A stretch of 64,000 nt of DNA from Candidatus Yanofskybacteria bacterium. Its GTDB lineage: Bacteria; Patescibacteriota; Minisyncoccia; 2-02-FULL-40-12; GWA2-44-9. This document shows positions 184 to 48,507 of the stretch, in pieces (the first letter of the stretch is position 1; each line of letters begins with the position of its first letter). The translations under genes and the position numbers were made by a program. The notes under the pieces are model-generated. The model saw nothing but the letters and a program-made list of their open reading frames with translations. It ran no database searches and had not been told where the DNA came from. The DNA is taken from assembly GCA_003514055.1 (NCBI GenBank), contig DOSG01000002.1:79825-143824 (forward strand), in the 5' to 3' direction.

Positions 184-2415
184 ATGGAACATACTAAAAA
201 AATATATACAATTAAGGGGATGCACTGCGCCTCTTGCGTGTTGATGATTGAGAAGTCACTAAAAAAGATTGATGGCGTTGTGGAGGCAAACGTTAATTTA
301 GCTAACGAGAAAGCTACGATTACCTTCGATCGTAATAAGGTTGATGACAACAAGATTATGTCAACAGTTTCTAGTGCTGGCTACGAAGCCATGGTTCAAG
401 AAGAGACCATGAGTGCCGATGAGCATAGGGAGCACATGGTTAAAGATCTCGGTAAGTTGAAGTGGGAAGTGGTGGTTAGTCTTGTATTGGGTGGGCTAAT
501 ATTGTGGGGCAGTTTTCCAGGATTGATGGATACGGCACCAGCGATTTTGAGGAATTTTTGGCTGCAGCTAATTATTGCCACTCCAGTTCAATTCTGGTTT
601 GGCAGGCAGTTCTATAAATCGGCAATTAGAGCTATCGCTCATGGAAATGCGAACATGGATGTTCTCGTGGTTATAGGCACGACCGTGGCGTATATCTATT
701 CCATATTCGTAATTATCTTCCCCGAATACGTCAAAGCAATTGGAGTCGAAGCAATGCCATACTTCGATGTCTCTTCGTTGATAATTGGGCTAATACTTTT
801 GGGAAGATTTCTGGAGTCGCGAGCGAAGCTGGGAACGTCGGAAGCGATCAAAAAATTACTACAACTTCAGGCCAAAAGTGCACGGGTAATTCGAGATGGG
901 ATTGAAGTTGATGTGCCCATTGAGGCTGTGGTTATCGGCGATCTGATTAGGGTTAAGCCTGGCGAGAAAATTCCCGTTGATGGAATTATTATGGAGGGCG
1001 AATCATGGGTAGATGAATCCATGATTACTGGCGAGAGTATGCCAGTAACTAAAAAGAAGAATGATTCGGTTGTTGGGGCTACCATAAACAAGAATGGAGC
1101 TTTTATCTTTCGGGCGGAGAAAATTGGATCGGAGACCATGTTAGCCAGAATTGTAAAAATGGTTCAGGAAGCTCAAGGCAGTAAGGCGCCGATTCAGCGA
1201 TTGGCCGATCAAGTTTCGTCGTATTTTGTTCCGATTGTTATTGTGCTTGCCATCGTTACCTTCGGCGTTTGGTATATTTGGGGGCCCGCGCCGACGCTAT
1301 CCTATGCTCTACTTAATGCAATTGCCGTACTTATAATTGCTTGTCCGTGTGCTATGGGTTTAGCCACGCCAACGGCAATAATGGTTGGTACGGGAAAGGG
1401 TGCCGAGAATGGGATTCTTATTAAAGATGCCGAGAGCCTGGAGATCGCCCACAAGGTTGATGCGGTAATATTCGACAAAACCGGAACGCTTACAGTCGGC
1501 AAGCCGGAAGTAACCGATGTTAAATTCGTTGAAGGTTATGACGAGAAGGCAATTTTGAGAATAGCCGCTTCACTGGAAGTTAATTCGGAGCATCCTTTGG
1601 CTGAGAGTATAGTCAACCAGGCCAAGAGGCTGAATATAGGTATTCAAGCGGTGGTAGGTTTTAGGGCGATTCCTGGACTTGGTGTCGAGGGTGTAATTGG
1701 TGACACTAAATATAGTATTGGTAGTAGGAAGCTATCCGAAAATAATGGCATAGATCTCGGGGATTTAAAGCACTCGATAGACTCGCTTGAAGATAGCGCT
1801 AAGACGGTAATGATTCTTGGATCTGAGGATGGAGTCATCGGTTTGATCGCTGTGGCAGATGTAATTAAGGACAGCGCCGTTGCCGGCGTAGAAGTTCTTA
1901 AGCAAATGGGGATCGAGGTTATTATGCTAACGGGTGATAATAAAAAAACGGCTAATGCTATCGCTGCGAAATTAAACATAGGCAGGGTATTGGCTGAGGT
2001 TTTGCCAGATGAGAAAGAGGCCGAAGTAAAAAGAGTCCAGTCGGAGAATAAGATCGTGGCTATGATAGGTGATGGTATCAACGATGCGCCGGCCCTAGCT
2101 CAAGCCGATGTCGGCATTGCTATGGGTAGCGGCACCGACGTCGCCATCGAAGCGGCCGACATAACATTAGTTAATAAAAACTTGAGATCGATCGCGTCAG
2201 CGATAAGTCTTTCTAGGCAAACCATGAAGACGATCAGGTTGAATCTGTTTTGGGCGTTTGGATATAATATTATTCTAATTCCCGTAGCCATGGGCGCACT
2301 GTACCCGTTCTTCGGTTTGTTATTGAATCCGATATTCGCTTCGGCGGCGATGGCACTTAGCTCGGTGTCGGTGGTATCGAATTCGCTTCTATTGAAACGT
2401 AAAAAAATAATTTGA
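184..2415 (+). CDS. copA: Copper-translocating P1B-type ATPase
   Basis: N-terminal HMA motif GMHCASCV; CPC metal motif ([11 protein letters not shown]); DKTGTLT phosphorylation site; GDGINDAP hinge; 743 aa. Confidence 0.9.
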
Positions 2416-2443
2416 TAGGCGATGCTATCGAATTGGTGAAATA

Positions 2444-2480
2444 GGTAGTAGGTTATAGCATAAGACGGGCCAACGGCCCG
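2444..2480 (+). terminator. Perfect hairpin after copA (agcataagacgggcc-aac-ggcccgtcttatgct), followed by TGcTATAAT
   Basis: inverted repeat read directly from the sequence. Confidence 0.5.
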
Positions 2481-2536
2481 TCTTATGCTATAATGCGTAC
2501 AACAATAATTGTAACTGGCGACTTATCGCTGATGGT

Positions 2537-3565
2537 ATGACCGACAAAAATAAAAGTATCATATATGCTACCGTGGGGTTTATGTTTATGGCCGTATTCT
2601 TTGTTTTGGGGTACACGCATAATGATCAGGAGATAAAAGATTTTACTAAGACTAATATTGTTAAAGAAAAGATTACTGTCGAGCCCACGCCGAGTCCTGC
2701 GAGTAAAAATGGGGCCTCTATTATTTTTGTGGGCGATGTCATGACGTCACGAACAGTGGCTCAGAAAATGAAAAAGAATGGGTATGATTATCCGTTCTCA
2801 GCCATGGCGGGATATCTAAAAAGCGCTGACATGGTTTTCGCTAATCTAGAGACGCCCATAACGTCTGGGCCAAGCGTAAGTAGTGGAGATGTCGTTTTCC
2901 GTTCTGACCCAGAGGTTGCCGGTGCCTTGGCTCGCGCTAATATCAAAATAGTTTCTTTGGCCAACAATCATTCGATGAATTTTGGTGTTCAGGGCATAGC
3001 CGATACTTTCAAATATCTTATATCGGCTGGTGTCGATTTCGTGGGTGCCGGTAATAATGAAGTGGAAGCTTATGGGCCAAAATACATAAATATAAACGGG
3101 ATCAAGTTCGCGTTCTTGGCTTTTACTGATATCGACGTACTTCCTCCAGGAGCCGCTATAGAAGTGATTCAGCCAGGCGTAGCTATAATGGATTTAGCTA
3201 AGGCCAAGAAGGCAATTCAGGTAGCTAAAGGCATTGCCGATGTGATTGTTGTCTCGATGCACTCGGGTACAGAATATACCGACGTGCCCAATCAAAGACA
3301 AACAAGTTTCGCTCGAGGCGCTGTGGATGCGGGCGCTGATTTGGTTATTGGGCATCATCCGCATTGGACTCAAACGGTAGAGGAATATAAGGGCAAATAC
3401 ATTTTCTACAGTTTAGGCAATTTTGTATTTGATCAGATGTGGTCACAGAAAACCCGTGAAGGTGAAATTGTAAAAATATATTTTTCAAAGGATGGAGTCG
3501 AAAAATACGATTTGACTAGAATCGTTATTGACGATTATTCTAGGCCAAGGATAGTCCAGCCCTAA
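2537..3565 (+). CDS. CapA/PgsA-like metallophosphoesterase (poly-gamma-glutamate capsule synthesis family), membrane-anchored
   Basis: N-terminal TM segment; GDVM.., NNHSMNFG, GHHPHW motifs typical of the CapA family. Confidence 0.55.
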   Translation: MTDKNKSIIYATVGFMFMAVFFVLGYTHNDQEIKDFTKTNIVKEKITVEPTPSPASKNGASIIFVGDVMTSRTVAQKMKKNGYDYPFSAMAGYLKSADMVFANLETPITSGPSVSSGDVVFRSDPEVAGALARANIKIVSLANNHSMNFGVQGIADTFKYLISAGVDFVGAGNNEVEAYGPKYININGIKFAFLAFTDIDVLPPGAAIEVIQPGVAIMDLAKAKKAIQVAKGIADVIVVSMHSGTEYTDVPNQRQTSFARGAVDAGADLVIGHHPHWTQTVEEYKGKYIFYSLGNFVFDQMWSQKTREGEIVKIYFSKDGVEKYDLTRIVIDDYSRPRIVQP

Positions 3566-3675
3566 CGGACATTTTCTCATCAAGGGCCCGCTTCTTGGTT
3601 CTCGGGGCGCGAGATTAGACATGAGCCGTATGGCTCATTTGTTTTTTTCGAGGAAAAAGGTATAAATAAATTGCG

Positions 3676-5517
3676 ATGCCAGACGATAATATTTCAAAAA
3701 TAAAAGAGCGGCTAGACGTAGTCGGAGTCCTTTCTGGCTATATCAAAGTTCAGAAGGCGGGTATGAATTTCAAGGCACGTTGCCCGTTTCATAATGAGAA
3801 GACGCCATCTTTCTATATATCGCCAGAGAGGCAGATTTGGCATTGTTTTGGTTGTCAAAAAGGCGGCGATATATTTGCTTTCGTAAAAGAGATCGAGGGC
3901 GTCGAATTTCCAGATGCTATGCGCATACTGGCTCAGAAAGCTGGCATACAATTACAGCACTACGAGCTAATCGATCAGAAAAAAGACGAGAAAGCCATTC
4001 TGTATGATATCGTCGAATTAGCAACTAAGTTTTTCGAGAAACAACTTAGGGCCTCTAGAACGGGCATGCAGGCACTAAAGTATTTGAAAGAAAGAGGCCT
4101 CGAAGAGGGCACCATAGATGAATTTAGATTGGGCTTTGCGGCTAACGATTGGGAGGCCTTGTCATCTTTTTTAAGAGAGAGGGGATATAAGGAGCAAGAT
4201 ATCGTGGCCGCGGGTATGGCCATCAAGAGAGAAAATAAGAGTGGCGCTTATGACCGATTTCGTTCTCGAATTATATTCCCCATATTTGATCTAAACGGGA
4301 GGGTGGTCGGCTTCACGGGCAGAGTGTTTCAAGCAGAAAGACCGTTAGAGACTAAGGGCGAAGAGCCAGCTAAATATATTAACACGCCCCAGACTTCCAT
4401 TTATGACAAAAGTATGGTATTGTACGGCTTAAGTAAGGCGAAACAGAGTATACGCCAATCAGACAAATGTCTGCTGGTCGAGGGCAATATGGATGCCCTC
4501 ATGTCGTACCAGGCCGGCGTTACTAATGTAGTCGCCACATCCGGCACAGCGCTGACACCAAATCATTTAAAAATCCTACAGCGCTATACAAGTAATTTGG
4601 ATTTCTCATTCGATACCGATCAGGCCGGAGCGATAGCAACAAGAAGGGGCATAGGCCTCGCCTTAGCCCAAAATTTCAGTGTAAAAGTAGTTTCAATAGA
4701 AGATCCTTTATGCAAGGATCCGGCTGACTTTGTCCAGAAGCATGGTTCCAAATGGGCCGAGTTAGTTTCTGCATCAAAGCCGGTCATACAGTTCTATTTC
4801 GACAATTTGAGATCGCAGATAAACCCGTCATCGGTTGACGGGAAGAAAGCCGTTATTGCGGCGCTGGCACCTTTTATAAGAAGAATTGTCAGCAAAGTTG
4901 AGAAGGACCATTGGATTAGTCACTTGGCATCCTTTTTAAAAACTAAGGAAGAGGCACTTGAGGCTGATGTCTTAGCGGCTAAAGATGATTTAGGTGTTTA
5001 TGAAGGGGGTTCGAATGTCTCGGCTGGGCCAGTCCCAACGGTGGCTGCCGTGGGGTGGGCACCTGATAATGAATTGGCTGTGGATATACTTAGCGAGGCG
5101 CTGTTATCCATCATCATAAAGAATCCATCGATTTTTAAAGATGAGCTGGTCAAGATCAATCTGGACTTAATTGATCCTCGCGTATCTGGTGTTGTGACGG
5201 TGCTATCTAAGCTAGATCTAGAGAACTTTAATTTCGCCGAGGTCGTTAAGGGTTTTGACGGTGCGGCGGCGATGAAGCTAGAGTTTGCCTTCCTGAGGTC
5301 ACAAGAACTCTGGAAAGATTTTCAAGACGAAGATCTAAGGATAGAATTCAAGTCTGTTTTGCAAAAAATAGTTCACCGTTCGATTGTCGCTCGTCTAGTC
5401 AATCTCGAATACGAGATGAAAGAAGCCGAGATGACGGGTGATAAAGATAAGATTAGTGAATTGATATCGAAGTTCACAAATCTAACCAAGGAATTGGTTG
5501 AGATAAATAACATATAA
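3676..5517 (+). CDS. dnaG: DNA primase
   Basis: Zn-ribbon [11 protein letters not shown]...CFGC; TOPRIM region ([10 protein letters not shown]); 613 aa; immediately upstream of rpoD. Confidence 0.9.
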
Positions 5518-5518
5518 A

Positions 5519-6712
5519 ATGGCCAAAAAAACAAAAAAGACGACTGCGAAGAAAGCGATCAAGCCCAAGAATAAAGTTAAAGCTCCAAAAACCAAGAAGA
5601 AGGTAGCTAAGAAGTCTAAAGCTCCTGGTAAGATAATTTTAAGCGAAAGCAGCGTTCTTGCTTTGATCGAAAAAGGACGCCACAGAGGCTTTGTAACTCA
5701 GGCCGAAGTCTTAAATTCTTTTCCCAATATTGAGAAGGATATTAAGGGCCTAGAGGCCTTGTATGACAAACTCGATGCGGCAAATGTTAATGTTATTGAA
5801 TCTGGCAGGGTTTTTCATGAAGAATCAGTCAAAGAGTACGATGCTAAGAAAAAAATCGAAACTGAGTTTGGCGATTCTTCGTCAGATTCGGTGCAGATGT
5901 ATTTGAAAGAGATCGGGCAATATCCACTTTTAACTAGCGAGGAAGAAATTGAATTGGCTAAAAGAATTGAGAAGGACGACGAAGCGGCTCGTCAGAAGCT
6001 GGCTCTTTCGAACTTAAGATTGGTGGTCTCGATCGCCAAGAAGTACGTGGGGCGCTCGGCTAATTTGACTCTGCTTGATTTGATTCAAGAGGGGAATATT
6101 GGGTTATTTAAGGCCGTAGAAAAGTTTGATTACAAAAAGGGATATAAATTCTCAACCTATGCTACTTGGTGGATTAGGCAAGCTATTACTCGTGCCTTAG
6201 CTGACCAAGGCAGAACTATCCGCATTCCGGTGCACATGGTTGAGACTATAAATAAATACCAACAGGTAGTACGACGCTTAGTGCAGGATCTTGGTCGTGA
6301 GCCTATGCCGGAAGAGACTGCTTCAGAGATGGGCATTGCCGTGGATAAGGTTAGGCACATCATGAAGATCTCACAGGAAACGATTTCTCTCGAAGCGCCG
6401 GTGGGCGATGATGATGATCAGGATTCAAGTCTAGAGAGTTTTATTCCAGACGAAGATACGATTTCGCCATCGATGTCCGCCGCTAGAAAAATATTAAAAT
6501 CATATATTAACGAAATCATCGCCGACTTAACTCCAAGAGAGCAGAAAATACTAGATATGAGATTTGGATTGACCGATGGCGTGACTCACACTCTCGAAGA
6601 GGTTGGTAAGGTGTTTGCCGTTACTCGCGAGCGTATTAGACAAATTGAAGCCAAGGCTTTGGATAAAATTCGACAACATCACAAGTTGGGCAAGTTAAAG
6701 GGCTACGAATAG
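5519..6712 (+). CDS. rpoD: RNA polymerase primary sigma factor (sigma-70 family) with lysine-rich N-terminal tail
   Basis: region 2.4 [13 protein letters not shown]; region 4 [23 protein letters not shown]; dnaG-rpoD synteny. Confidence 0.9.
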
Positions 6713-6725
6713 CCGAGACAACTCG

Positions 6726-6770
6726 TCTCAAATCAAATGGCGGCCTTTGGCCGCCATTTGATTTGAGACC
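6726..6770 (+). terminator. Long perfect hairpin after rpoD (tctcaaatcaaatggcggcc-tttg-ggccgccatttgatttgaga)
   Basis: 20-bp perfect inverted repeat; no T-run follows, so the terminator role is inferred. Confidence 0.4.
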
Positions 6771-6858
6771 CTTGAATGCACGGAGTTCTTCTGTTAAAAT
6801 ATCTAAGTTCTTATAGAACAATACATTCCGCGATAGCTCAATGGTAGAGCGGCTCCCT

Positions 6859-7387
6859 GTGGAGACTATTCCTTCGAAATAGCGCTATAATGTTATTAAT
6901 GAAGGATAAAAGAACCTATGCCGATCGTCGCGAGGAATTGATAAAAGCGGTCGCCAAAAGGCGACGCAAAGTCAAAAGTCTAGCGATAGAATATAAGGGT
7001 GGCAAATGCCAAGTTTGTGGATATTGTAAGTATCAAGGAGCTCTTGATATGCACCACATATCTGATAAGCAATTTGGCATCGGAGATAAAGGATATACGA
7101 GATCTTGGGAAAAGATTAAACAAGAACTTGATAAATGTATCCTTGTCTGCGCAAATTGTCATCGTGAGATAGAAGGCGGCATAACGCAGCTTTCCGATCG
7201 AAAGACGGATTGAAACTTTTCGGGATAACGGTGAAGCCCTAGTCCGCCGACTGGTGGATGGGTAATACCGTGGGAACCTCGTAAATTTTACGAGGGCGCC
7301 GTAGAGACTAGATACCGAAACGCCTAAATCGTAAGGTAAGATAGGGCGAAGATATAGTCCACCCCGTGTCGTAAGACATGGATTACG
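6859..7387 (+). mobile_element. Group I self-splicing intron (approximate boundaries) with an ORF in its 5' part
   Basis: Conserved core elements in the expected order: R-like gtagagactaga (~7296-7307), S-like aagatatagtcc (~7341-7352). P8-like hairpin cgccta...tagggcg between them. P9-like GNRA hairpin ccgtgtc-gtaa-gacatgg, then G before the 3' exon. Confidence 0.6.
6890..7213 (+). CDS. HNH homing endonuclease (intron-encoded)
   Basis: CQVCGYC...DMHHISDK...N...VCANCH pattern (CxxC...HH...N...CxxCH); 107 aa; lies entirely inside the intron. Confidence 0.75.
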   Translation: MLLMKDKRTYADRREELIKAVAKRRRKVKSLAIEYKGGKCQVCGYCKYQGALDMHHISDKQFGIGDKGYTRSWEKIKQELDKCILVCANCHREIEGGITQLSDRKTD

Positions 7388-10802: not shown

Positions 10803-11076
10803 AACCGTAGCGATTTTTAGTCAATTTTTCAAGTAGAGCAAGACCTTTTAATCATTGAGTGTTTGTGGTAAATTTAGCGTAACAATTCAGCCTAAACCAA
10901 TCGGGGCAACCTGATTAGCATGGCATCAAATACCGACGAAGATACTGAACCCATCGTTCAGGCTCCTTCGTCGGTCCATACCCGAAAGGGTGTGGGAGAG
11001 TGAAAGCTCTCGGCCTAGCGGTGGGTTTAGTGTTATACAAAACCCTGAGTCCCCATTAGCCGAGGCAAAATATACC

Positions 11077-17099: not shown

Positions 17100-17221
17100 A
17101 TTGCAAATATTAGGATTTTGTGCTATAATATAGACAATGTTGCACCATCTAATCTGGATGCGTGCAGGCAGACCGTAAACCAACGATCCAGCACAGCTGG
17201 ACGGATGGAAGGAGAGCGGCT
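17100..17221 (+). promoter_or_regulatory. Promoter TTGCAAAT...TGCTATAAT plus a conserved 52-nt leader (hairpin ccagc-aca-gctgg; RBS ggaaggagag) ahead of paralogue 1
   Basis: nearly identical to 23146-23264. Confidence 0.55.
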
Positions 17222-17650
17222 ATGGCAACTATGGTGTTGCTCGACAACAATGGCGAGAAAGTACGGACTCTCGGGTCGATCATCAATCCGAACCCGGATC
17301 TGGTCATCCCGCAGGGGTGGATGCTCAGTTGGGAAAATCAGTTCATGGAGGTCACTGCGACCGATCGTCTGAAAAATGCCGTGCTTACGCACGGGAAGGC
17401 CCGCGTCCTGGTCAATGTCGTGATGCAGACGCTCGTGGTCAGAATCGAGAGCCCGAATGTGAGGGATCTCGTGGAGGCAATCGACCTCATGGTTCAGTAC
17501 GTCGGGGGCGAGGTCGCTACGTTCAGCCCCTCCGCCGCCAACAATTCGTTCGTCGGCGGCATCAAGAACGACCTCGTCTTTCTTCGAAACATGGCGGTAC
17601 GGGCCATTCGCTCGCTACGGCAGCGAACTGGCTTCAAGATCGCGCGCTAA
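17222..17650 (+). CDS. GC-rich hypothetical protein, paralogue 1 (~142 aa)
   Basis: start MATMVLLDNNGEK after the RBS; 180 nt identical to the 23218-23398 copy, then diverged; own big-stem terminator downstream. Confidence 0.6.
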   Translation: MATMVLLDNNGEKVRTLGSIINPNPDLVIPQGWMLSWENQFMEVTATDRLKNAVLTHGKARVLVNVVMQTLVVRIESPNVRDLVEAIDLMVQYVGGEVATFSPSAANNSFVGGIKNDLVFLRNMAVRAIRSLRQRTGFKIAR

Positions 17651-17855
17651 GCGCTCACACCTCGCATCGAGACAGGGGATCCCAATCCTCGTCTGGTGCG
17701 GGGTCCTTTGTTTTTATACGTATCCAAGACTAATTAAATCTCCCCGAATTCTTACTCAATCCAGCGTTCTGAATGCGTTCCGTAGGCAGAGCAAAGCTTG
17801 ACAATAGCACTAGATGGTGCTATTGTTATTTTAACCTTAAAACTAGGAGAGTGTC

Positions 17856-18162: not shown

Positions 18163-18197
18163 CTAGTTCTCAAAAACCCAAGAAAGGAGTCAGTATA

Positions 18198-19322
18198 ATG
18201 AGTCTGAAACTGCGTCGGAGAGATAGACTATGGGTCATAACCCAAGGCCTGCCGCACGCTGTCGTGGCGGAAGTCCTCCTCGATCCTTGGGATCAGGTGG
18301 GCGAAGTCGTTCTGTATGCAGATTCCTCCGAGCAAGTTCAGCTCGAGGTTCTGCGTCTTGCGGCCTCACATGTTCGACAGTACGTTCGACATCGGACGGC
18401 TTCGGCTTTCGGTGGCCTCATGGTTGCCGAACATCGTAATCACAACCTGACGCGAGATGATTCCGACCGTTTCATGGATTTCTCGACGATCCCGTCGGAG
18501 ATTCAGGAGATGAATCGGGAGACGCTCACAAGAGGACTTCGCGAACTCCACATCAGTGTCTTTGCTGCCGTCCATCGGCGAGCCGAAGATGCAATCAGCG
18601 CCGCCATCGAACAAGTTGGCGTCGCTGGTCTCAAGTACGAAGTGATTCCCCAAAGGATGATCTTCGATACCGAGTTGATGGTTCGTTTCACCGTCGAAGA
18701 GCCGAACAGCTTCACCTTCTGGCACAGTCAGTCCAGGCCTGGTGGCGGGTTCGATCTCTACATCGTCCCGGCTTATCATCCCGTGATGAACGGGAAAGAG
18801 TCAGTTGGAATGGTCAACGGCGCTACAGATGCTTACATTCGCGGCAACGCGGTGAGAAGCATCTACTGCCCGGAGGACGCACAAGCAACAGATCCCAGTA
18901 AGAACTTCGGTACGAGCTGGAATCACGTGAAGCATCCGTTCTACGCGACAGGTCGTTCGATGGCGGTGAAGTTGATCACCACGAAGGTTCGTTCAGCCGA
19001 AAGCATGGAGGAGCTCACTCAGCTTCTGCGTGCTGCTCTCGGTCTGGACAACAAGTACGTGGACATCAGCGGCGGTTTCAATGCTCCGCTAAAGTGCGGG
19101 TACAATCGCATCGTTGAACTCGGCATCAGATCGCCCTATCCGCAAGCCGAGTACAGGCGCGGCGGTAACATCACTCGCGGTTCCGAACAACATTGCGTAT
19201 GGTCTTATCGAGTCCTCAAGGAAGAGGGGCAACTCGAGAAGGCCTACATTCCTTCCTGGTTTATCAAAGAAGGCTGGCTGAAGATCTACGAAGGCGCTGA
19301 AGAACGCCACGGTCTCTACTGA
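18198..19322 (+). CDS. GC-rich hypothetical protein (374 aa)
   Basis: strong RBS aaaggagtcagtataATG; GC content far above the surrounding DNA; terminator 19347-19396. Confidence 0.6.
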   Translation: MSLKLRRRDRLWVITQGLPHAVVAEVLLDPWDQVGEVVLYADSSEQVQLEVLRLAASHVRQYVRHRTASAFGGLMVAEHRNHNLTRDDSDRFMDFSTIPSEIQEMNRETLTRGLRELHISVFAAVHRRAEDAISAAIEQVGVAGLKYEVIPQRMIFDTELMVRFTVEEPNSFTFWHSQSRPGGGFDLYIVPAYHPVMNGKESVGMVNGATDAYIRGNAVRSIYCPEDAQATDPSKNFGTSWNHVKHPFYATGRSMAVKLITTKVRSAESMEELTQLLRAALGLDNKYVDISGGFNAPLKCGYNRIVELGIRSPYPQAEYRRGGNITRGSEQHCVWSYRVLKEEGQLEKAYIPSWFIKEGWLKIYEGAEERHGLY

Positions 19323-19494
19323 TGAGCAAGCTCAGAAATCACCTGCCCGCGAGAGCCCGCACATTACGTGCCCGCCTCGCGGGCTCTCTCTTTTTATACA
19401 AACGCATATTTTATTAAATCATTGTGAATACTAACCCAATCCAGCGTTCTGAATGCGTTCCGTAGGCAGAGCTGACAGCATTATTGCAAGTATA

Positions 19495-20912: not shown

Positions 20913-22040
20913 TTATCTCAGCTCTTTGATCATCCGTAGCTTCAAGCTTACGGCCGTTCCAATTGCAGTCAGGCTGAACAGAGAAATAACGGCATACCCT
21001 ACGAATGGAATGAACCAGAGGATAATATATGCGGCCACGCCAATTAACATAGTCTTCCAGCTAACGTCGAAATTCGTTTTCTTAGTAAGCCATTTATATA
21101 GAAGTGAACCTATGAATATCGGAGTTAAGGCACAGCTAAGGATACTAAGAGCAACAATACTTATGATGCCTAAAATTCCAAGCGGAATTCCAACGACCGT
21201 AACCAGAAGTAGAATAGATATTACGGGTAAGATAATAACAGTGACGAACCCCTTTCCAAGTGCGGCCCAGGGAGACTTGAAGGCAGTCTCAACTGCTTCA
21301 ACGCTGTAGCGTCTGAACATGATACCCATTAAGAATACTAGGACAATCATCATCAAGGCCTTCATGATCAACCAGAATGATATGAAAGCTTTGATAGGTC
21401 GACTTTCGTTACGCATCGCTTTCGATTCATAAGAAACTGTGCCAAGAATTTTTGCCTCGCTATCTCTAGACATTTCATTGGGTGAACGATAGGTAAGATT
21501 GCCGCTAATAACAGCTTTCGGTCCCAATTTCAATTGAGTGGCATCGACAATAATATCTCCAGTCACGGTGGAATTTATATATACCAATGCTCCTGCTATC
21601 CGAGCCTTACCTCGAACAGAAGCCTCGACATTAATTGAATTGCCGCCAAGTAAGAGGTCGCCACCCACTTGGCCACCGGAAACCGTAATCTGATTGCCGC
21701 CTATCATGGCATCGCCGCCAACGTTGCCCTGAATAAAAACAGTATTGCCGATAATCTTAACGTCGTCGTCGACATTGGCAGTAATGACAACATTGTTGCC
21801 AGCTGAAAAGAGATCTTGGCTGACCTGGTTACTTATGAGGACGGATTGACCTGCCGCAAAGAGATCTCCGATTATTGTACCAGTGACGGATACGCTACTG
21901 CCGGCGATATACAGATCATCGCTGACTATCTCTGACGAGCCGACGGTTGGGTTGCTTCCGCTCGTAAATGTCGCACCAAGAGCTACCGCTGGCAACAAAA
22001 GTGCCATGGCAACAAAGAGTATAATTTTTTGTTTGTTCAT
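20913..22040 (-). CDS. Bactofilin-like (beta-helical repeat) protein with signal peptide and C-terminal TM domain
   Basis: repeated G-rich beta-solenoid units (IIGDLFAAGQSV.., VGGDAMIGGNQITVSGG.., GDIIVDA..) followed by four TM helices. Confidence 0.5.
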   Translation of the reverse strand: MNKQKIILFVAMALLLPAVALGATFTSGSNPTVGSSEIVSDDLYIAGSSVSVTGTIIGDLFAAGQSVLISNQVSQDLFSAGNNVVITANVDDDVKIIGNTVFIQGNVGGDAMIGGNQITVSGGQVGGDLLLGGNSINVEASVRGKARIAGALVYINSTVTGDIIVDATQLKLGPKAVISGNLTYRSPNEMSRDSEAKILGTVSYESKAMRNESRPIKAFISFWLIMKALMMIVLVFLMGIMFRRYSVEAVETAFKSPWAALGKGFVTVIILPVISILLLVTVVGIPLGILGIISIVALSILSCALTPIFIGSLLYKWLTKKTNFDVSWKTMLIGVAAYIILWFIPFVGYAVISLFSLTAIGTAVSLKLRMIKELR

Positions 22041-22152
22041 ATCTATACTATAGCAAGTATCAGCAAATTTTCCAAAAATTCTCTAGCCGACTAGCGTCGG
22101 TTTTTTATTCCCAACAGATTTTGGCCTCATTTGCTCAGCGTGATGCACTTGA

Positions 22153-22185
22153 TTGACAGAACGCGATTTCGGTGGTATTATTAAT
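22153..22185 (+). promoter_or_regulatory. Promoter TTGACA...GTGGTAT half-site...TATTATTAAT
   Basis: member of the operator-promoter family; left half-site degenerate. Confidence 0.45.
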
Positions 22186-22211
22186 ATATCCTGAAATCTG
22201 GAGGTTGTGCC

Positions 22212-22421
22212 ATGCCCGACATTCGTAAGTGTGCAGTCTGTCGCGTTGAGTTTGACTTCGACGAGTCCGGGCTAGAGGGTCCAAACGACGTCGTGGTCTG
22301 CGGCGCGGTCTGTGCCAAAAAGTCTGCCGCCAGTCGTGGAAGCGAATATGTGATCCACGACGGCGAGGGGGCGGTAGTTGAGACGAACATCACTCCTGGC
22401 ATCAAGACTCACCGCTGGTAA
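22212..22421 (+). CDS. GC-rich small Cys protein (zinc-ribbon-like CxxC...CxxxC), 69 aa
   Basis: CAVCRVEF...VVVCGAVC; RBS ggagg. Confidence 0.45.
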   Translation: MPDIRKCAVCRVEFDFDESGLEGPNDVVVCGAVCAKKSAASRGSEYVIHDGEGAVVETNITPGIKTHRW

Positions 22422-22462
22422 TCTTATCTCGAACGCCACATCAAGGAACAGGAGGAGTGCAA

Positions 22463-22678
22463 ATGAAAGTCACGGTTCTCGAGAAACCGACCGGAGGAAC
22501 GTGGTCACGATCTGAGGTTGAGGCTATCATGGGGACAATGACCGAAGTCGAACAGCTACCGAGGCTGCCGAATCGTATCGTGCTCATGAACAAGCCGCTC
22601 CGTGGTTCGATCTCGTGCGCTCTGGGCCACACCAACTACGTCGCGCGAGAAGTGGACTACCACGATCGCTGGGCCTAG
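22463..22678 (+). CDS. GC-rich small hypothetical protein (72 aa)
   Basis: RBS aggagg; terminator 22683-22740. Confidence 0.4.
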   Translation: MKVTVLEKPTGGTWSRSEVEAIMGTMTEVEQLPRLPNRIVLMNKPLRGSISCALGHTNYVAREVDYHDRWA

Positions 22679-22861
22679 CTATCGGCCCGCCTACTTGGCG
22701 ACGGAAACCCGTCGACTCAAGTCGGCGGGCTTCTTTTTTTATCCATATCCAGCTGAGTCTTTTTGGGTGTTTGCCGAGGTTGTCGATCTGAATATGTTCT
22801 GTGAGCGAAGCAAGGCATGCGGATGGTTTACGAATATCGTTTTAATTGATATGCTAAAGTT

Positions 22862-23062: not shown

Positions 23063-23264
23063 TCTCAGTTAGGTTATAGAATTGATGCCCAAGAGGAGAG
23101 GGGCGCGTCTTTCAAAAAGTGCCTTAAATGGGCACTTTTTGGTATTGCAAACGTTACAGTTTCGTGCTATAATATAAATAATGTTGTGGCGTCTAACCTG
23201 GGCGTCGCGAACAGACCGTAAACCAACGATCCAGCACAGCTGGACGGATGGAAGGAGAGCGGCT

Positions 23265-23693
23265 ATGGCAACTATGGTGTTGCTCGACAACAATGGCGAG
23301 AAAGTACGGACTCTCGGGTCGATCATCAATCCGAACCCGGATCTGGTCATCCCGCAGGGGTGGATGCTCAGTTGGGAAAATCAGTTCATGGAGGTCCTCG
23401 CAAAGGACCACCTGAACAACGCCGTACTAACGCATGGGAAGGCTCTCGTTCTGGTCACCGCTATGATGAGTACGGTTGTGGTCCGGATTGAGAGCCCGAA
23501 CGTGAAGGACCTGGTCGAGGCGATCGACCTCGTGACCCGGTACCTTGGCGGCGAGGTTGCCACCTTCAGCCCCAACGCCGCCAACAATTCGTTCATTGGC
23601 GGTATCAAGAATGACCTCATCTTCCTTTGGGGGAAGACGACTCAGGCCATTCGCTCGCTACGGCAGCGGATTGGTTTCAAGATCGCACGCTAA
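23265..23693 (+). CDS. GC-rich hypothetical protein, paralogue 2 (~142 aa)
   Basis: same promoter, leader and first ~45 codons as 17222-17650. Confidence 0.6.
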   Translation: MATMVLLDNNGEKVRTLGSIINPNPDLVIPQGWMLSWENQFMEVLAKDHLNNAVLTHGKALVLVTAMMSTVVVRIESPNVKDLVEAIDLVTRYLGGEVATFSPNAANNSFIGGIKNDLIFLWGKTTQAIRSLRQRIGFKIAR

Positions 23694-23771
23694 GCGTGCA
23701 TGCCTCGCATCGAGACAGGGGACCTCAATCCTTGTCTAGTGCGAGGCCCTTTGTTTTTATTCGTACCGAAT

Positions 23772-25073
23772 TTATTTTAGGAACCAAGCCTTAACGACTT
23801 CTTCAGATGGTTTGTTGCGGAAGCCGGCCGATATCGATATCAGGGGCCTTACTTCTGGATCGAGAGCATCATCCCAGGCGAAATTACCGACGTTAATCCT
23901 GACGATATTCGTTGCATCTCGGACCACCGAAAAGAAGGAATTAAAAGCTTTGGCTTGCTCGTTGTAATCACTTTCAAGGGCTCTGATCGATGGGTTTTTG
24001 GAATCGAGATATTCGACTGGGCCAGCAAAAGTGCCGTCTGTATAGCTGGATGGTGCGAAGAATAGAGATACCTTTATTCCCTTCGCAATGGCCTTTCGGT
24101 TAACATCTTCGATCATTCTTCCCATCGCCGCATCGAATGATTCTTCTCCGTCTATTTTGTACTTGCCAGGTATAGCGTATATTTTTATCTCAATCACGTC
24201 GGCTTCCTTGTAATAATCATATTTTGTCCAATCTTCCTTTCCGTTTTTGCCGTCGATAAACCCGTATATATTCAGATCAGTCATTATCTCTCCTTTAAAA
24301 TTCTCCTTGACCTTAGATATGAGTTTTTTCCATAATCTATTCGCAAGCTCCTCGTGTCTAGTAAACGTTGGGTCCTGGAACATGGGCGATATGGACATAA
24401 TATCGACTCCAGCTTCCTGGTACATCTTACCCTTCTCTGATAATCGCGATTCCCATTTTTCGAAGTAATTGGAAATCCATTCTTCCGTATGTGAACTGTT
24501 GAAGTCTTCGTAATCTTTCGCGACGTCTGTGGTAATATCTCCTTTTATCCCAGACAATATGAATTTCCCGATATTCACGAAGGCCAGATTTCTTTTTATG
24601 CCAAGTTTCATCCCGCGTGAATGGGCGGCTTCTACGAGCTTCTCCAGATCCTCGGAGTTTATTGATTCGTCACGCATATCGTTCCAGAATGTTTCGTCAG
24701 CTAACTGATATGAAGTACTTTTATAGTCTGTCTCGTCGTCATATAGAGCCCTGTCAAAATCGTGTATGAATATCTCTTTGGCGCCAAGAGTTCTTACTCG
24801 TTCGAATGAACTCTCAATATTGGCCTGCGTCGTTTCGAACATTCCCATATTGTAGTTTCGGCCCCATGTGTCGTACATATTAACCGCTTTTATTTGAGGC
24901 AGAGGGGATGGAGAAACCGATACTTCATATTTGTGTACTATAAATTCTCCACGGCACCAGGGAGGAGTCGGCCATGGTCCGACAGGTGGGCAGATATTGG
25001 AAGCGAACATCGCGCCGATTAGTAGAAGAAGGATCGCCGCGATGATCGCAAGATAGATAAAAGTTTTTCTCAT
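23772..25073 (-). CDS. Membrane-anchored glycoside-hydrolase-like (TIM-barrel) protein, tentative
   Basis: N-terminal TM segment; 433 aa; overall composition only, no specific motif confirmed. Confidence 0.35.
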   Translation of the reverse strand: MRKTFIYLAIIAAILLLLIGAMFASNICPPVGPWPTPPWCRGEFIVHKYEVSVSPSPLPQIKAVNMYDTWGRNYNMGMFETTQANIESSFERVRTLGAKEIFIHDFDRALYDDETDYKSTSYQLADETFWNDMRDESINSEDLEKLVEAAHSRGMKLGIKRNLAFVNIGKFILSGIKGDITTDVAKDYEDFNSSHTEEWISNYFEKWESRLSEKGKMYQEAGVDIMSISPMFQDPTFTRHEELANRLWKKLISKVKENFKGEIMTDLNIYGFIDGKNGKEDWTKYDYYKEADVIEIKIYAIPGKYKIDGEESFDAAMGRMIEDVNRKAIAKGIKVSLFFAPSSYTDGTFAGPVEYLDSKNPSIRALESDYNEQAKAFNSFFSVVRDATNIVRINVGNFAWDDALDPEVRPLISISAGFRNKPSEEVVKAWFLK

Positions 25074-35207: not shown

Positions 35208-35362
35208 ACCATGGAGTGCCCGATATACGTGTTGATCTTATGCAACACTAATTAAGGCTCGATTTTTCCTCTTTTCAACCCGCAAAATAGGGGAGGAACG
35301 TTCATTTCTCCTTGCTAAAACAGTAAGATTGATGGCCTAGACAGGTCTAAGCTGTTGCGATT

Positions 35363-35392
35363 GACGAAACCGCCTGTTTATGCTATAATTAA
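35363..35392 (+). promoter_or_regulatory. Promoter TTGACG-N17-TGcTATAAT ahead of a GC-rich gene
   Basis: ttgacgaaaccgcctgtttatgctataatt. Confidence 0.5.
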
Positions 35393-35474
35393 TACAACAG
35401 TGATGGTAGGGACCTTCACAACAGAATACGTTAGATTTGGTGCTTTTTTTCTTGTATCCATAAGGAGCTTGAGG

Positions 35475-36734
35475 ATGAAGAAGATCGACAGGACTGCCGA
35501 ATTCCCTCAGTTGAGGGACGGCGAAGTGTATGCGGACTGGACGGGAGCGGCGCTTCCACCGGTATCGCTCATCAGCAAGTTCGCGACGTTTCTGACGTCG
35601 CATCTGCTGGGTAACCCACACTCATCGCACCGGGCATCGCAGACCGCCTCCGACATGGTGACGGCGACGCGAGCGAGAATTCTGTCGTATCTCAACGCTT
35701 CCAGCGATGAATACGATGTGGTCTTTACCCCGAACGCGACCGGTGCGATCCGTATCCTCGAACACTTCGTGTTCCGGGGCGGTGAGCTTCTGCTCACCGC
35801 GGACAACCATAACTCGGTCAACGGCTTGCGGGAAACCGCAAAACGTGACGGAGGGGTGGTGCGCTACGCGCCCATCAATGGCAATCTCGGGATCGACGTA
35901 GATGGGTTGGTCCGACTGCTCGACTACCCGCGTACGGAAGGTGGGAACAAGCTCTTCGCCTACCCGGCGAAGAGCAATTACTCGGGGGTGTGTCATCCGC
36001 TCGAGCTAGTCGGGATGGCGCAGGAACGCGGGTGGTACGTCCTTCTGGACGCCGCCGCGTACAACGCGAACTGCCGTCTCGATCTGAGCGCGGTCAAGCC
36101 GGACTTCGTTCCGGTGTCGTTCTACAAGATGTTCGGGTTCCCAACGGGTGTCGGTTGCCTGATCATCAAGAAGACGGCCTACGCAGCGCTGGCCAAGAAG
36201 TGGTTCGCCGGCGGCTCGATCCGACTGGTGTCGGTCGCCACCGACTACTTTACCCATGATCGTGGGGCGTCGAAGTACGAGGACGGAACCATCAACTTCC
36301 AGATGATCCCGGCGATCATGGAAGGGCTCGAGTTCCTCGAGGAGTTTGGGGATCGGAATCGGCACGCCATCGCGTTGGCTACCCAGCTCCGTGACGAGCT
36401 CAAGGGCTTGGCAGTGGGAGACGCCTTGTTCGTCATTCACAGCCCGCGTGGTACGGACACCGTGGCTTGCGCCGTTCGCAAAGACGGCGAATACTTGTCA
36501 GTGAGAAGGTTTGAAGAGTTCGCCTCTGAGCGTGGAGTTCACGTCCGGGCGGGCGACTTCTGCAACCCCGGGGCTAACGAGCAGGTGTATGGCTTCGTGG
36601 TCGACCCAAACGAGCCGCAATTCGATGCGGCTCCCAACGGGAGCATCAGAATTTCATTTGGCTACGCCAACGTGGCGAGCGATGTTTCACGGATTCTCGA
36701 GGTGGCAAGGGAGTACTTGGACCACATCCAGTAG
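35475..36734 (+). CDS. GC-rich class-V aminotransferase-fold PLP enzyme (MOCOS/cysteine-desulfurase-like)
   Basis: SFYKMFGFPTGVGCL resembles the PLP-lysine region of the molybdenum-cofactor sulfurase/NifS family; RBS taaggag. Confidence 0.55.
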   Translation: MKKIDRTAEFPQLRDGEVYADWTGAALPPVSLISKFATFLTSHLLGNPHSSHRASQTASDMVTATRARILSYLNASSDEYDVVFTPNATGAIRILEHFVFRGGELLLTADNHNSVNGLRETAKRDGGVVRYAPINGNLGIDVDGLVRLLDYPRTEGGNKLFAYPAKSNYSGVCHPLELVGMAQERGWYVLLDAAAYNANCRLDLSAVKPDFVPVSFYKMFGFPTGVGCLIIKKTAYAALAKKWFAGGSIRLVSVATDYFTHDRGASKYEDGTINFQMIPAIMEGLEFLEEFGDRNRHAIALATQLRDELKGLAVGDALFVIHSPRGTDTVACAVRKDGEYLSVRRFEEFASERGVHVRAGDFCNPGANEQVYGFVVDPNEPQFDAAPNGSIRISFGYANVASDVSRILEVAREYLDHIQ

Positions 36735-36746
36735 GAGAGGTGACAC

Positions 36747-36938
36747 ATGAGCCAGGATCAGTCGAAGGTTGACTCGCGTATCAAGGTCGGCTCGATCGTG
36801 AGTCGCCGTGGGCAGGAATACAGGGTGACAGAGTTCACCCACGGCTGCTGCGGCGGCGACGAACAGGTTCGGGTCAGGGATGGCAACGGCTTTTCGGCCG
36901 GGCCGTTCTACACCGACAACGTCAAGTTCGTTCGATAG
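36747..36938 (+). CDS. GC-rich small protein (63 aa) with an HGCCGG motif
   Basis: RBS gagagg; terminator cccccgggggg...ccccggggttttt follows. Confidence 0.35.
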   Translation: MSQDQSKVDSRIKVGSIVSRRGQEYRVTEFTHGCCGGDEQVRVRDGNGFSAGPFYTDNVKFVR

Positions 36939-37128
36939 TCGTCTACGCGACGGCTATCAGCCCCCGGGGGGTTCTACCCCCGGGGTTTTTGTTTACTAAA
37001 TAAATTGCCCAACGAGCGATCATATAAAAATATCTGGATTAATATCCGCGTATTTAGGAAGGAATAAAAAGATGATCCATGAGTGGATCATCTTTTTATT
37101 CCTGGGGAACTATAAACGAGTCTTTGTC

Positions 37129-47652: not shown

Positions 47653-47765
47653 CCACCTTGCCTAGGTGGTTTTATGTTTAACTGGTAGTATGTCGCAGTT
47701 TATGGCCAGATTTTTTATTTCATTGCGAGCCGCTTGTAATATAGAAATAACGTGGTATAATGCGG

Positions 47766-47795
47766 CCGTGATTCGTGTTGGTTCGTAAGCAACTT
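47766..47795 (+). promoter_or_regulatory. Promoter TTGTAA-N17-TGgTATAAT ahead of a GC-rich gene
   Basis: cttgtaatatagaaataacgtggtataatg. Confidence 0.5.
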
Positions 47796-47843
47796 GGGTG
47801 ACTACTACCAGAGGCCAGATGCCTAAAAAGTAGTGGAGGAATT

Positions 47844-48359
47844 ATGGAAAGACTAAAACGGTTGATGGCCGAAGCCGAGGCTCTCATCATCGGGTCCGAT
47901 GATGAGCCGAATAGCGGCAAGAATTTCGATGACGTGGTCATCGGTGTCTTGCCGGATGGGCTGAAGAGGCTCGGTGTCCTCATCGGGCGCAAGTACGACC
48001 AGATCAAGGCGATGGTCAGGGAGGGTATCCACCTGTGTGACGCCGACGAGGGCCTTGAGCCCCACGAACACACGTCGGAACACAAGGAGTTCCACGCGAA
48101 GGTCCGCGCCGCCGAGGCGGAGCTGAAGTTCGTCAAGGATCTCTTCTGGGGTCTGGTGAAGATCGAATTCCCGGACGCCAACGACAAGGGAGAGCTGCTC
48201 GTTTGCATCGGCTTCGAGTTGGTGGCGAGGAAGAGCGAACCGAAACTCGACGGTTTGCGCCAGACACTGAATGCCATGGGCGTCGACTTCAAGGTTGTGC
48301 GTGCGTCTGTGGGCGACACGCCTCAGATCTTGGTGCCTGGATCCAAGGCCCGCAACTAG
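47844..48359 (+). CDS. GC-rich hypothetical protein (171 aa)
   Basis: RBS ggagga; hairpin terminator 48367-48420. Confidence 0.5.
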   Translation: MERLKRLMAEAEALIIGSDDEPNSGKNFDDVVIGVLPDGLKRLGVLIGRKYDQIKAMVREGIHLCDADEGLEPHEHTSEHKEFHAKVRAAEAELKFVKDLFWGLVKIEFPDANDKGELLVCIGFELVARKSEPKLDGLRQTLNAMGVDFKVVRASVGDTPQILVPGSKARN

Positions 48360-48507
48360 TCAGCGCGGGGTCTATTCAATCCCATGGTAGACGAAGCTTC
48401 GAGCTCCGTCTACCATGGGATTTTTACTTTTTAGGCTCATTTATGGACACGTATTGTAAAATGTGGGCTATTAGTGTAGTCTATGGCTATATAAATTAAA
48501 CAAAAAC

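Follow-up and report, generated by a model that had tools for sequence, protein, structure and literature searches.

Does a small GC-rich gene pair in a bacterium of the candidate phyla radiation (CPR) encode a sulfur-mobilizing enzyme together with a dedicated acceptor for its sulfur? The question arises from a stretch of 64,000 nucleotides (hereafter the window; GenBank assembly GCA_003514055.1, contig DOSG01000002.1, positions 79,825 to 143,824 of the forward strand) of a Candidatus Yanofskybacteria (CPR/Patescibacteria) chromosome from aquifer metagenomes. A two-gene unit of 1.63 kb, with its own promoter, two ribosome-binding sites (RBSs) and a terminator, spans positions 35361-36990 of the window. 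GenBank already labels the first gene (gene A) 'Cysteine desulfurase' and the second (gene B) 'hypothetical protein'. Our answer, to which we give somewhat less than even credence as a whole, is that the unit is an acquired operon in which gene A encodes a cysteine desulfurase and gene B a partner that takes over its persulfide. The features on which this answer depends are the following, in window coordinates.

35475..36734, + strand: gene A, 419 aa, pyridoxal 5'-phosphate (PLP)-dependent enzyme of the class V aminotransferase fold
36126..36128, + strand: codon of K218, the Schiff-base lysine, in SFYKMFGFPTG (residues 215-225)
36561..36563, + strand: codon of C363, the putative persulfide-forming cysteine, in R358-A-G-D-F-C363-N-P-G
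36591..36641, + strand: shortened loop after the active-site helix (residues ~373-389), ~21 residues shorter than in all out-of-clade homologues
36747..36938, + strand: gene B, 63 aa, orphan small β-barrel, with HGCCGG at 36840-36857

As the original prediction had proposed, the gene A product has the class V aminotransferase fold. Its only Pfam match is to Aminotran_5 (PF00266; 1.2e-39, 136.8 bits against a cutoff of 21.5), and the match is full-length, with residues 18-406 covering profile positions 1-370 of 371. The predicted PLP-lysine region also held up on alignment: K218 is invariant among 20 (alignment A2) and 34 homologues (alignment A6), and aligns with the PLP lysine of CsdA (SGHKLYG). 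H112, D192 and R392 are likewise invariant in both alignments, while R358 and C363 do not vary in A2 and reach at least 90% conservation in A6. The R-x-G-x-x-C motif of C363 has the same spacing as RTGHHC in SufS. The equivalence of C363 to SufS C364 and ABA3 C430 is drawn from motif spacing and the literature (PMC3916724) rather than from a residue-level structural alignment.

The AlphaFold2 model of the gene A product was built on 34 homologues and has a predicted local distance difference test score (pLDDT) of 92.6. Its top 50 Foldseek matches are all SufS, CsdA, CsdB or NFS2 (template-modelling (TM) scores 0.81-0.85), and the matches include the desulfurase-acceptor complexes SufS-SufU and CsdA-CsdE. 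Both the overall structure and the short RxGxxC loop that define type II desulfurases are found in this predicted model, whose only low-confidence segment is the shortened loop (mean pLDDT 73 for residues 371-380 and 59 for 381-390, with 383-385 below 50). A sequence search of the PDB also returned CsdA and SufS as the best matches (E = 7e-21 and weaker). In a comparison with an N-terminal sequence of human MOCOS, usable as a lead only, gene A gave 32% identity and 183 bits (77 bits for CsdA), and JGI labels several of its homologues 'molybdenum cofactor sulfurtransferase'. We conclude that gene A very probably encodes an acquired, type II-style cysteine desulfurase resembling the N-terminal domain of MOCOS, and we infer that it acts on L-cysteine. 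With 7,991 homologues at E <= 1e-20 among 8,000 scored candidates, it belongs to a large stand-alone bacterial branch.

The assignment of the substrate has evidence against it in the curated models. The closest NCBIfam models are those of SufS and CsdA, yet gene A scores far under every curated desulfurase cutoff: 112.9 against 475.1 for SufS (TIGR01979 / NF006791), 86 against 607 for CsdA (NF008126 / TIGR03392), 54 against 531 for NifS, 43.7 against 548 for IscS, 46.6 against 525 for SclA, and 43 against 480 for DndA. These scores would suit an Aminotran_5 enzyme of different chemistry (for instance, C-S lyase, cysteine sulfinate desulfinase or dedicated selenocysteine lyase activity), and we know of no stand-alone bacterial enzyme of this branch that has been characterized, no specific search having been made. 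However, members of the family show little or no variation at the RxGxxC cysteine and the substrate-binding arginines, and a C-S lyase has no need of that cysteine. Furthermore, the eukaryotic relatives, namely the N-terminal domains of ABA3 and MOCOS, are proven desulfurases (PMC3916724). We consider a different chemistry improbable. The earlier description of gene A as MOCOS/NifS-like therefore stands for the motifs and the catalytic-type cysteine, and does not extend to a MOSC domain, which gene A lacks, or to any of the NCBIfam desulfurase cutoffs.

Is gene B a gene at all, and is it tied to gene A? With high confidence, gene B is a real and functional gene that is translationally coupled to gene A. 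Its start lies 12 nt past the gene A stop in the window, as had been noted, and 5 nt past it in a sister lineage. In both, the RBS overlaps that stop (GGAGAGG, contained in the 12-nt spacer, in the window; GAGGAG in the sister lineage). The two lineages have gene B in different frames with respect to gene A, and therefore the genes are not joined by read-through into a fusion protein. The GC content at third codon positions (GC3) is similar in the two genes (0.78 in gene B, 0.76 in gene A). The ratio of nonsynonymous to synonymous substitution rates (dN/dS) of gene B is 0.14-0.18 between the window and two sister variants and 0.39 between the sister variants; for gene A it is 0.12-0.17.

The HGCCGG motif is invariant in the three gene B variants, and its vicinal pair, Cys34-Cys35, comprises the only cysteines of the protein and lies in a Gly-rich loop. 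The predicted fold is a five-stranded small β-barrel of the SH3/Tudor/KOW-like type, superposable on known members, in which the Cys-Cys pair occupies the loop between strands 2 and 3. A word-indexed search of 5.8 billion proteins found one other gene B cluster only (P0002, 67 aa, 66% identity), and a full HMMER pass of the gene B profile over 1.84 billion representative proteins yielded nothing further that was credible. Scanning 241 million metagenome records for the pattern added five loci, all of the sister type. No match to gene B was found in Pfam or NCBIfam (E up to 1-10) or among PDB sequences (E up to 10), and no relatives were found in IMG/VR. Gene B is thus an orphan, confined in these searches to its own narrow clade.

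Some candidate affiliations of gene B were rejected. P0123, a 963-aa repeat protein without cysteines and the one additional hit of the HMMER pass, had matched through a Gly/Thr-rich stretch and was judged spurious. The UniRef label 'DUF1918 domain-containing' (PF08940) was reproduced neither by the Pfam model, which did not match any of the three gene B variants at E up to 10 while giving Rv2302 95.9 bits (1e-27), nor by hhalign against a mycobacterial DUF1918 profile (hhalign probability 0.07%). A phage origin was not retained either, as IMG/VR held no relatives and the match to phrog_8084 was marginal (E = 0.002) and limited to one of two variants.

The strongest link between the two genes is their co-variation. 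Wherever the 419-421-aa enzyme variant occurs (L001-L011, L013 and L097-L101), gene B lies directly downstream, and the gene B clade alone differs beside the catalytic cysteine. There, D361 stands in place of the first Cys of the family motif GCFCNPG, and the loop behind it has lost ~21 residues, as read from alignment A2 (columns ~466-486). The co-occurrence of gene B with this remodelled enzyme suggests, at the level of the sequences, that the two are co-adapted. Because gene B co-occurs with D361 and the deletion, we propose that A and B function together; this is our main argument, a circumstantial one, and we hold with moderate confidence that gene B works together with the enzyme.

Outside the clade the picture is different. 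The closest out-of-clade relatives of gene A share 50-57% identity with it, and those that are labelled come from Magasanik-, Komeili-, Buchanan- and Saccharibacteria; in a neighbour-joining tree the window clade is nested among other CPR relatives of gene A. At nine such CPR loci the gene A homologue stands by itself as an insert, and no partner follows it. Gene B, absent from all the more distant homologous loci, is a lineage-specific addition rather than something conserved throughout the enzyme family. The 63-aa HGCCGG protein of the original prediction is thus a real, in-frame and co-inherited gene at every same-clade locus, and its expected presence in homologous loci ends with that clade.

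One further locus, L012, had seemed to carry the enzyme (P0005) without its partner, followed instead by an ISL3 transposase. It proved to be a three-way assembly chimera and was dropped as evidence: across positions 2301-4300 (NODE_3922, 3.3x coverage), successive segments match the window, L004/L013 and a third CPR genome (L096), each at 100% identity. This mosaic changes source within conserved stretches of the PLP gene, which results in a false 'hybrid' protein, P0005.

Several results weigh against a role of gene B in sulfur transfer. A tblastn search with gene B in ~90 other homologous loci (<=57% aa identity to gene A) found nothing. The neighbourhood of gene A in 80 genome loci had nothing in common beyond taxon-level synteny, and no MOSC, suf or rhodanese partner. 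Gene B itself did not match SufE/CsdE, IscU/SufU, TusA or rhodanese models in Pfam or NCBIfam, and its three variants come from one narrow lineage, in which the invariance of the Cys-Cys pair carries little weight. We know of no persulfide carrier with its fold.

These results would be readily explained if gene A were a stand-alone desulfurase and gene B an unrelated, co-transferred orphan, for example an adaptor or a nucleic-acid- or protein-binding module of the SH3/Tudor/KOW type. The enzyme stands alone in the ~90 homologous loci, usually as a monocistronic insert; the fold matches of gene B are generic small β-barrels that bind RNA, DNA or peptides; its weak match to phrog_8084 is to a phage family of unknown function; and it resembles no sulfur carrier in Pfam or NCBIfam. 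An unrelated orphan, however, would hardly be expected to stay tightly coupled in two lineages that differ in spacer length and frame, to co-occur strictly with an enzyme remodelled beside the catalytic cysteine, or to have no cysteines beyond an invariant vicinal pair within a Gly-rich loop. We regard such a chance companionship as a possibility to be taken seriously, though on the unlikely side.

If A and B do function together, how might sulfur pass between them? The horizontally acquired, self-contained two-gene operon would provide this CPR chromosome with a PLP-dependent L-cysteine desulfurase of the MOCOS/ABA3-N-terminal-like branch with type II (SufS/CsdA-like) architecture. K218 would bind PLP, cysteine would enter as an external aldimine, and C363 on the short RxGxxC loop would take the sulfur as an enzyme persulfide, with alanine leaving. 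Gene B would act as the dedicated partner, its SH3-like barrel presenting Cys34-Cys35 on an exposed loop so that the pair could receive the persulfide from C363. Its counterparts would be the fused MOSC domain or STR18 in eukaryotes, and SufE, SufU and CsdE for the type II enzymes. In ABA3, the desulfurase domain forms a persulfide on Cys430, which is then received either by the MOSC domain or by STR18, a small sulfurtransferase (PMC3916724, PMC8931425).

The steps of this scheme differ in strength. The sulfur or selenium relay that the original prediction had suggested is plausible, judging from adjacency, coupling and the Cys-Cys loop only. That the Cys-Cys loop accepts or resolves the C363 persulfide is possible, although we would not put it at an even chance. 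The scheme would entail a physical interaction of A with B, sulfur transfer to Cys34/35 and a downstream target. We think it doubtful, but worth stating, that gene B represents an unrecognized type of persulfide acceptor or relay, one that replaces MOSC for a MOCOS-type desulfurase and is co-adapted with a remodelled active-site lid.

The same loop could serve a resolving rather than a carrying function. In that case the vicinal dithiol of gene B would attack the C363 persulfide, release free sulfide or selenide and end as a vicinal disulfide, and the A-B pair would be a sulfide or selenide generator. The H-G-C-C-G-G sequence in a flexible loop speaks for this, and type II desulfurases are slow without a thiol that removes the persulfide. 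The GCCG-type motif is reminiscent of the GCCG/GCUG centres at the C terminus of thioredoxin reductases. A partner thiol is also reported to speed the turnover of ABA3 by reducing the persulfide (PMC8931425). However, the cassette holds no reductase that could recycle a vicinal disulfide, and nothing sets this function apart from simple persulfide carriage; we consider it unlikely.

What is new here is the combination of an orphan Cys-Cys β-barrel, its strict tie to a remodelled enzyme variant and a possible acceptor role. If gene B accepts sulfur, it would be a new structural solution to the hand-off of a persulfide and a new fold among desulfurase partners. The scheme, if true, would also give a handle on a large uncharacterized bacterial branch of MOCOS-like desulfurases with thousands of homologues; none of the curated Pfam and NCBIfam models searched is specific to this branch. 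It bears on the supply of activated sulfur in CPR bacteria, which lack most cofactor pathways and in many lineages of which a gene A-type enzyme occurs as a foreign-looking single-gene insert. Its reach is limited, as the pair occurs in one narrow Yanofskybacteria lineage and does nothing mechanistically unexpected for a desulfurase.

Is the pair a self-contained unit? Its remaining elements are as follows.

35361..35389, + strand: sigma-70-type promoter, with -35 TTGACG (35361-35366), a 17-nt spacer and an extended -10 TGcTATAAT
35396..35474, + strand: 5' untranslated region (UTR) of ~80 nt, with a hairpin, a pyrimidine-rich stretch and the RBS AAGGAG
35462-35467, + strand: RBS of gene A, AAGGAG; the ATG (35475) is 7 nt downstream
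36734..36740, + strand: RBS of gene B, GGAGAGG, overlapping the gene A stop; the ATG is 6 nt downstream
36962..36990, + strand: intrinsic terminator, CCCCGGGGG-GTTCTA-CCCCCGGGG then TTTTTGTTT

The promoter, with its TG at 35381-35382 and its -10 TATAAT at 35384-35389, matches the consensus at 11 of 12 positions. Such a match alone is not rare, since the window holds four against 2.3 expected from shuffles. The promoter is supported instead by its position and its conservation: five homologous loci have identical -35, TG and -10 elements within otherwise differing sequence. The 5' UTR contains a small hairpin at 35400-35419, GUGAUGGU-AGGG-ACCUUCAC, which is kept in both lineages, and GGACCTTCACAA is invariant in the five loci. 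The pyrimidine-rich stretch (35443-35470) is able to pair with the Shine-Dalgarno sequence in both lineages, with differing sequences. The folding energy of the 5' UTR is no better than that of shuffles (z ~0), and a riboswitch or other leader was rejected on this ground and for want of an Rfam match.

At the other end, the terminator consists of a 9-bp stem, all G/C, at 36962-36985, with a T-run after it. The sister lineage has a hairpin in the same position with a different stem sequence. Homology between the two lineages begins at the promoter and stops at the terminator, and 'self-contained unit' is therefore an accurate description; the promoter, RBS and G/C terminator of the original prediction were all found where it had placed them. 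Further downstream, between the island and a convergent 187-aa gene, a perfect 20-nt inverted repeat with a 4-nt loop (AGGAATAAAAAGATGATCCA / TGGATCATCTTTTTATTCCT) at 37060-37103 is probably a bidirectional terminator.

Where did the unit come from? That it was acquired had been proposed from composition, and composition bears this out. The island has a GC content of 0.60 against a window mean of 0.433 (standard deviation 0.053, 300-nt windows), the strongest GC excursion of the 64 kb, and the GC3 of genes A and B given above compares with 0.33-0.52 in the neighbouring genes. Substitutions polarized between the sister lineages, with the window as outgroup, run from GC to AT in 19-40 cases and from AT to GC in 7-14, a ratio of ~3:1. 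Because of this excess on recent branches, the cassette appears to be drifting toward host composition, as expected of an acquired gene short of equilibrium. Taken together, these data support a foreign origin of the cassette, as far as composition can indicate.

The acquisition is not recent, since the sister lineage has the cassette at 77% nucleotide identity. It lies there near an orthologous pair of C39-like peptidase genes, for which the DNA identity is 72%; the immediate neighbours of the cassette differ. Dating of the transfer by synonymous divergence (dS) was abandoned as uninformative, synonymous sites being near saturation in both the island and the flanking host genes. No direct or inverted repeats flank the island, no tRNA gene was found in the 64-kb window, and no integrase gene was called within ±10 kb of the cassette.

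The enzyme has its nearest relatives among other CPR bacteria and not within a GC-rich phylum. In several of these the homologous PLP gene (at ~5001-7317 in each locus) exceeds its flanks in GC content, namely 0.566/0.425 in L015, 0.550/0.349 in L017, 0.642/0.524 in L094, 0.408/0.272 in L105 and 0.540/0.469 in L107 (gene/flank). In the CPR loci L014 and L106 its GC content is host-like, and in non-CPR phyla it matches that of the host. This distribution suggests repeated lateral spread of gene A among CPR bacteria, as judged from base composition.

Could the island instead be an artefact of assembly or binning, in which a GC-rich fragment was joined into a CPR contig? Such errors do occur in related material, as the chimeric contig L012 with its 3.3x coverage demonstrates. 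However, more than 24 contigs from independent assemblies, some as long as 175 kb, carry gene A with the same sequence, context and junctions; GCA_000995875.1 and GCA_001795915.1 are among them. The sister lineage has the cassette near the orthologous C39 peptidase genes, and the promoter and terminator are AT-rich and host-like. We consider an artefact extremely improbable.

Other features were observed in and around the locus. A bactofilin-like gene for a 375-aa membrane protein lies 13 kb from the cassette in the window (20913-22040, - strand) and ~0.8 kb from it in L097 (1825-2958, - strand), and therefore the lineages differ by a large insertion, deletion or rearrangement; in the window, the 13-kb stretch contains AI-2E transporter, sigma-70, MacAB, DUF5666 and cytochrome b5 genes. 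Just upstream of the sister cassette, a 94-aa open reading frame (ORF) in L004 (761-1045, + strand) forms an islet of ~60% GC that has no counterpart in the window.

The window contains further GC-rich islets (>=0.53 in 300-nt windows; mean 0.433) at 17126-17825, 18176-19400, 22126-22850, 23176-23825 and 47751-48475, and the genome seems to be peppered with small foreign-looking inserts. Islet ORFs of 162, 374 and 170 aa have no Pfam match, and islet 22126-22850 contains ORFs of 69 and 73 aa. Directly upstream of two GC-rich ORFs (22212-22678), an 11/12 sigma-70 match lies at 22153-22181 (+ strand), with TTGACA, a 17-nt spacer and TATTAT preceded by TG. One of the two ORFs has a CxxC...C...C pattern, and the layout of promoter plus GC-rich cassette is as in the PLP island. 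The sole Rfam family in the 64 kb is a LOOT RNA (RF03000) at 10889-11011 (+ strand; 76.4 bits against a gathering score of 46.4).

How does the pair compare with known systems? With the DUF1918 proteins (Rv2302, PDB 2A7Y), gene B shares a small size of 60-80 aa, and Rv2302 is likewise SH3-like; DUF1918 proteins, in contrast, have no Cys-Cys loop. With the N-terminal domain of MOCOS/ABA3, gene A appears to have in common the motifs LFxYPAxSNxSG, DFVPxSFYKxFGFPTGxG, FEDGTxxF, R-x-G-x-F-C-N-x-G and GSxRISFGY. The catalytic cysteine of gene A sits in the same motif as Cys430 of ABA3 (PMC3916724). Gene A departs from MOCOS/ABA3 in having Asp for the first Cys of GCFC and a shortened loop after it. 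Moreover, MOCOS/ABA3 continues into MOSC_N and MOSC domains, whereas gene A ends at residue 419 without either. No MOSC gene was called within ±10 kb of the cassette, and no link to the molybdenum cofactor was seen for gene A at the locus. Lacking the MOSC domain, the gene A product is not a molybdenum cofactor sulfurase (EC 2.8.1.9).

The closest out-of-clade proteins (50-57% identity) are the stand-alone CPR enzymes annotated as 'aminotransferase class V-fold PLP-dependent enzyme', solitary and often GC-enriched inserts in AT-rich genomes. Unlike gene A, they retain GCFCNPG and a loop of the longer form, and no small ORF lies downstream of them. The type II systems SufS-SufE, SufS-SufU and CsdA-CsdE provide the best structural matches to gene A (TM 0.81-0.85), although their desulfurases share only 20-25% identity with it and it falls under all the NCBIfam cutoffs. 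Their acceptors have the SufE/CsdE or IscU/SufU fold, whereas gene B is predicted to be an SH3-like barrel with a vicinal Cys-Cys pair, and no suf or csd genes were found near the cassette. Nevertheless, gene A and the type II desulfurases have in common the short RxGxxC loop, the PLP lysine and the His/Asp/Arg active-site set, and the two-gene unit follows the same operon logic, in which a desulfurase gene is followed by the gene of a small cysteine-bearing partner.

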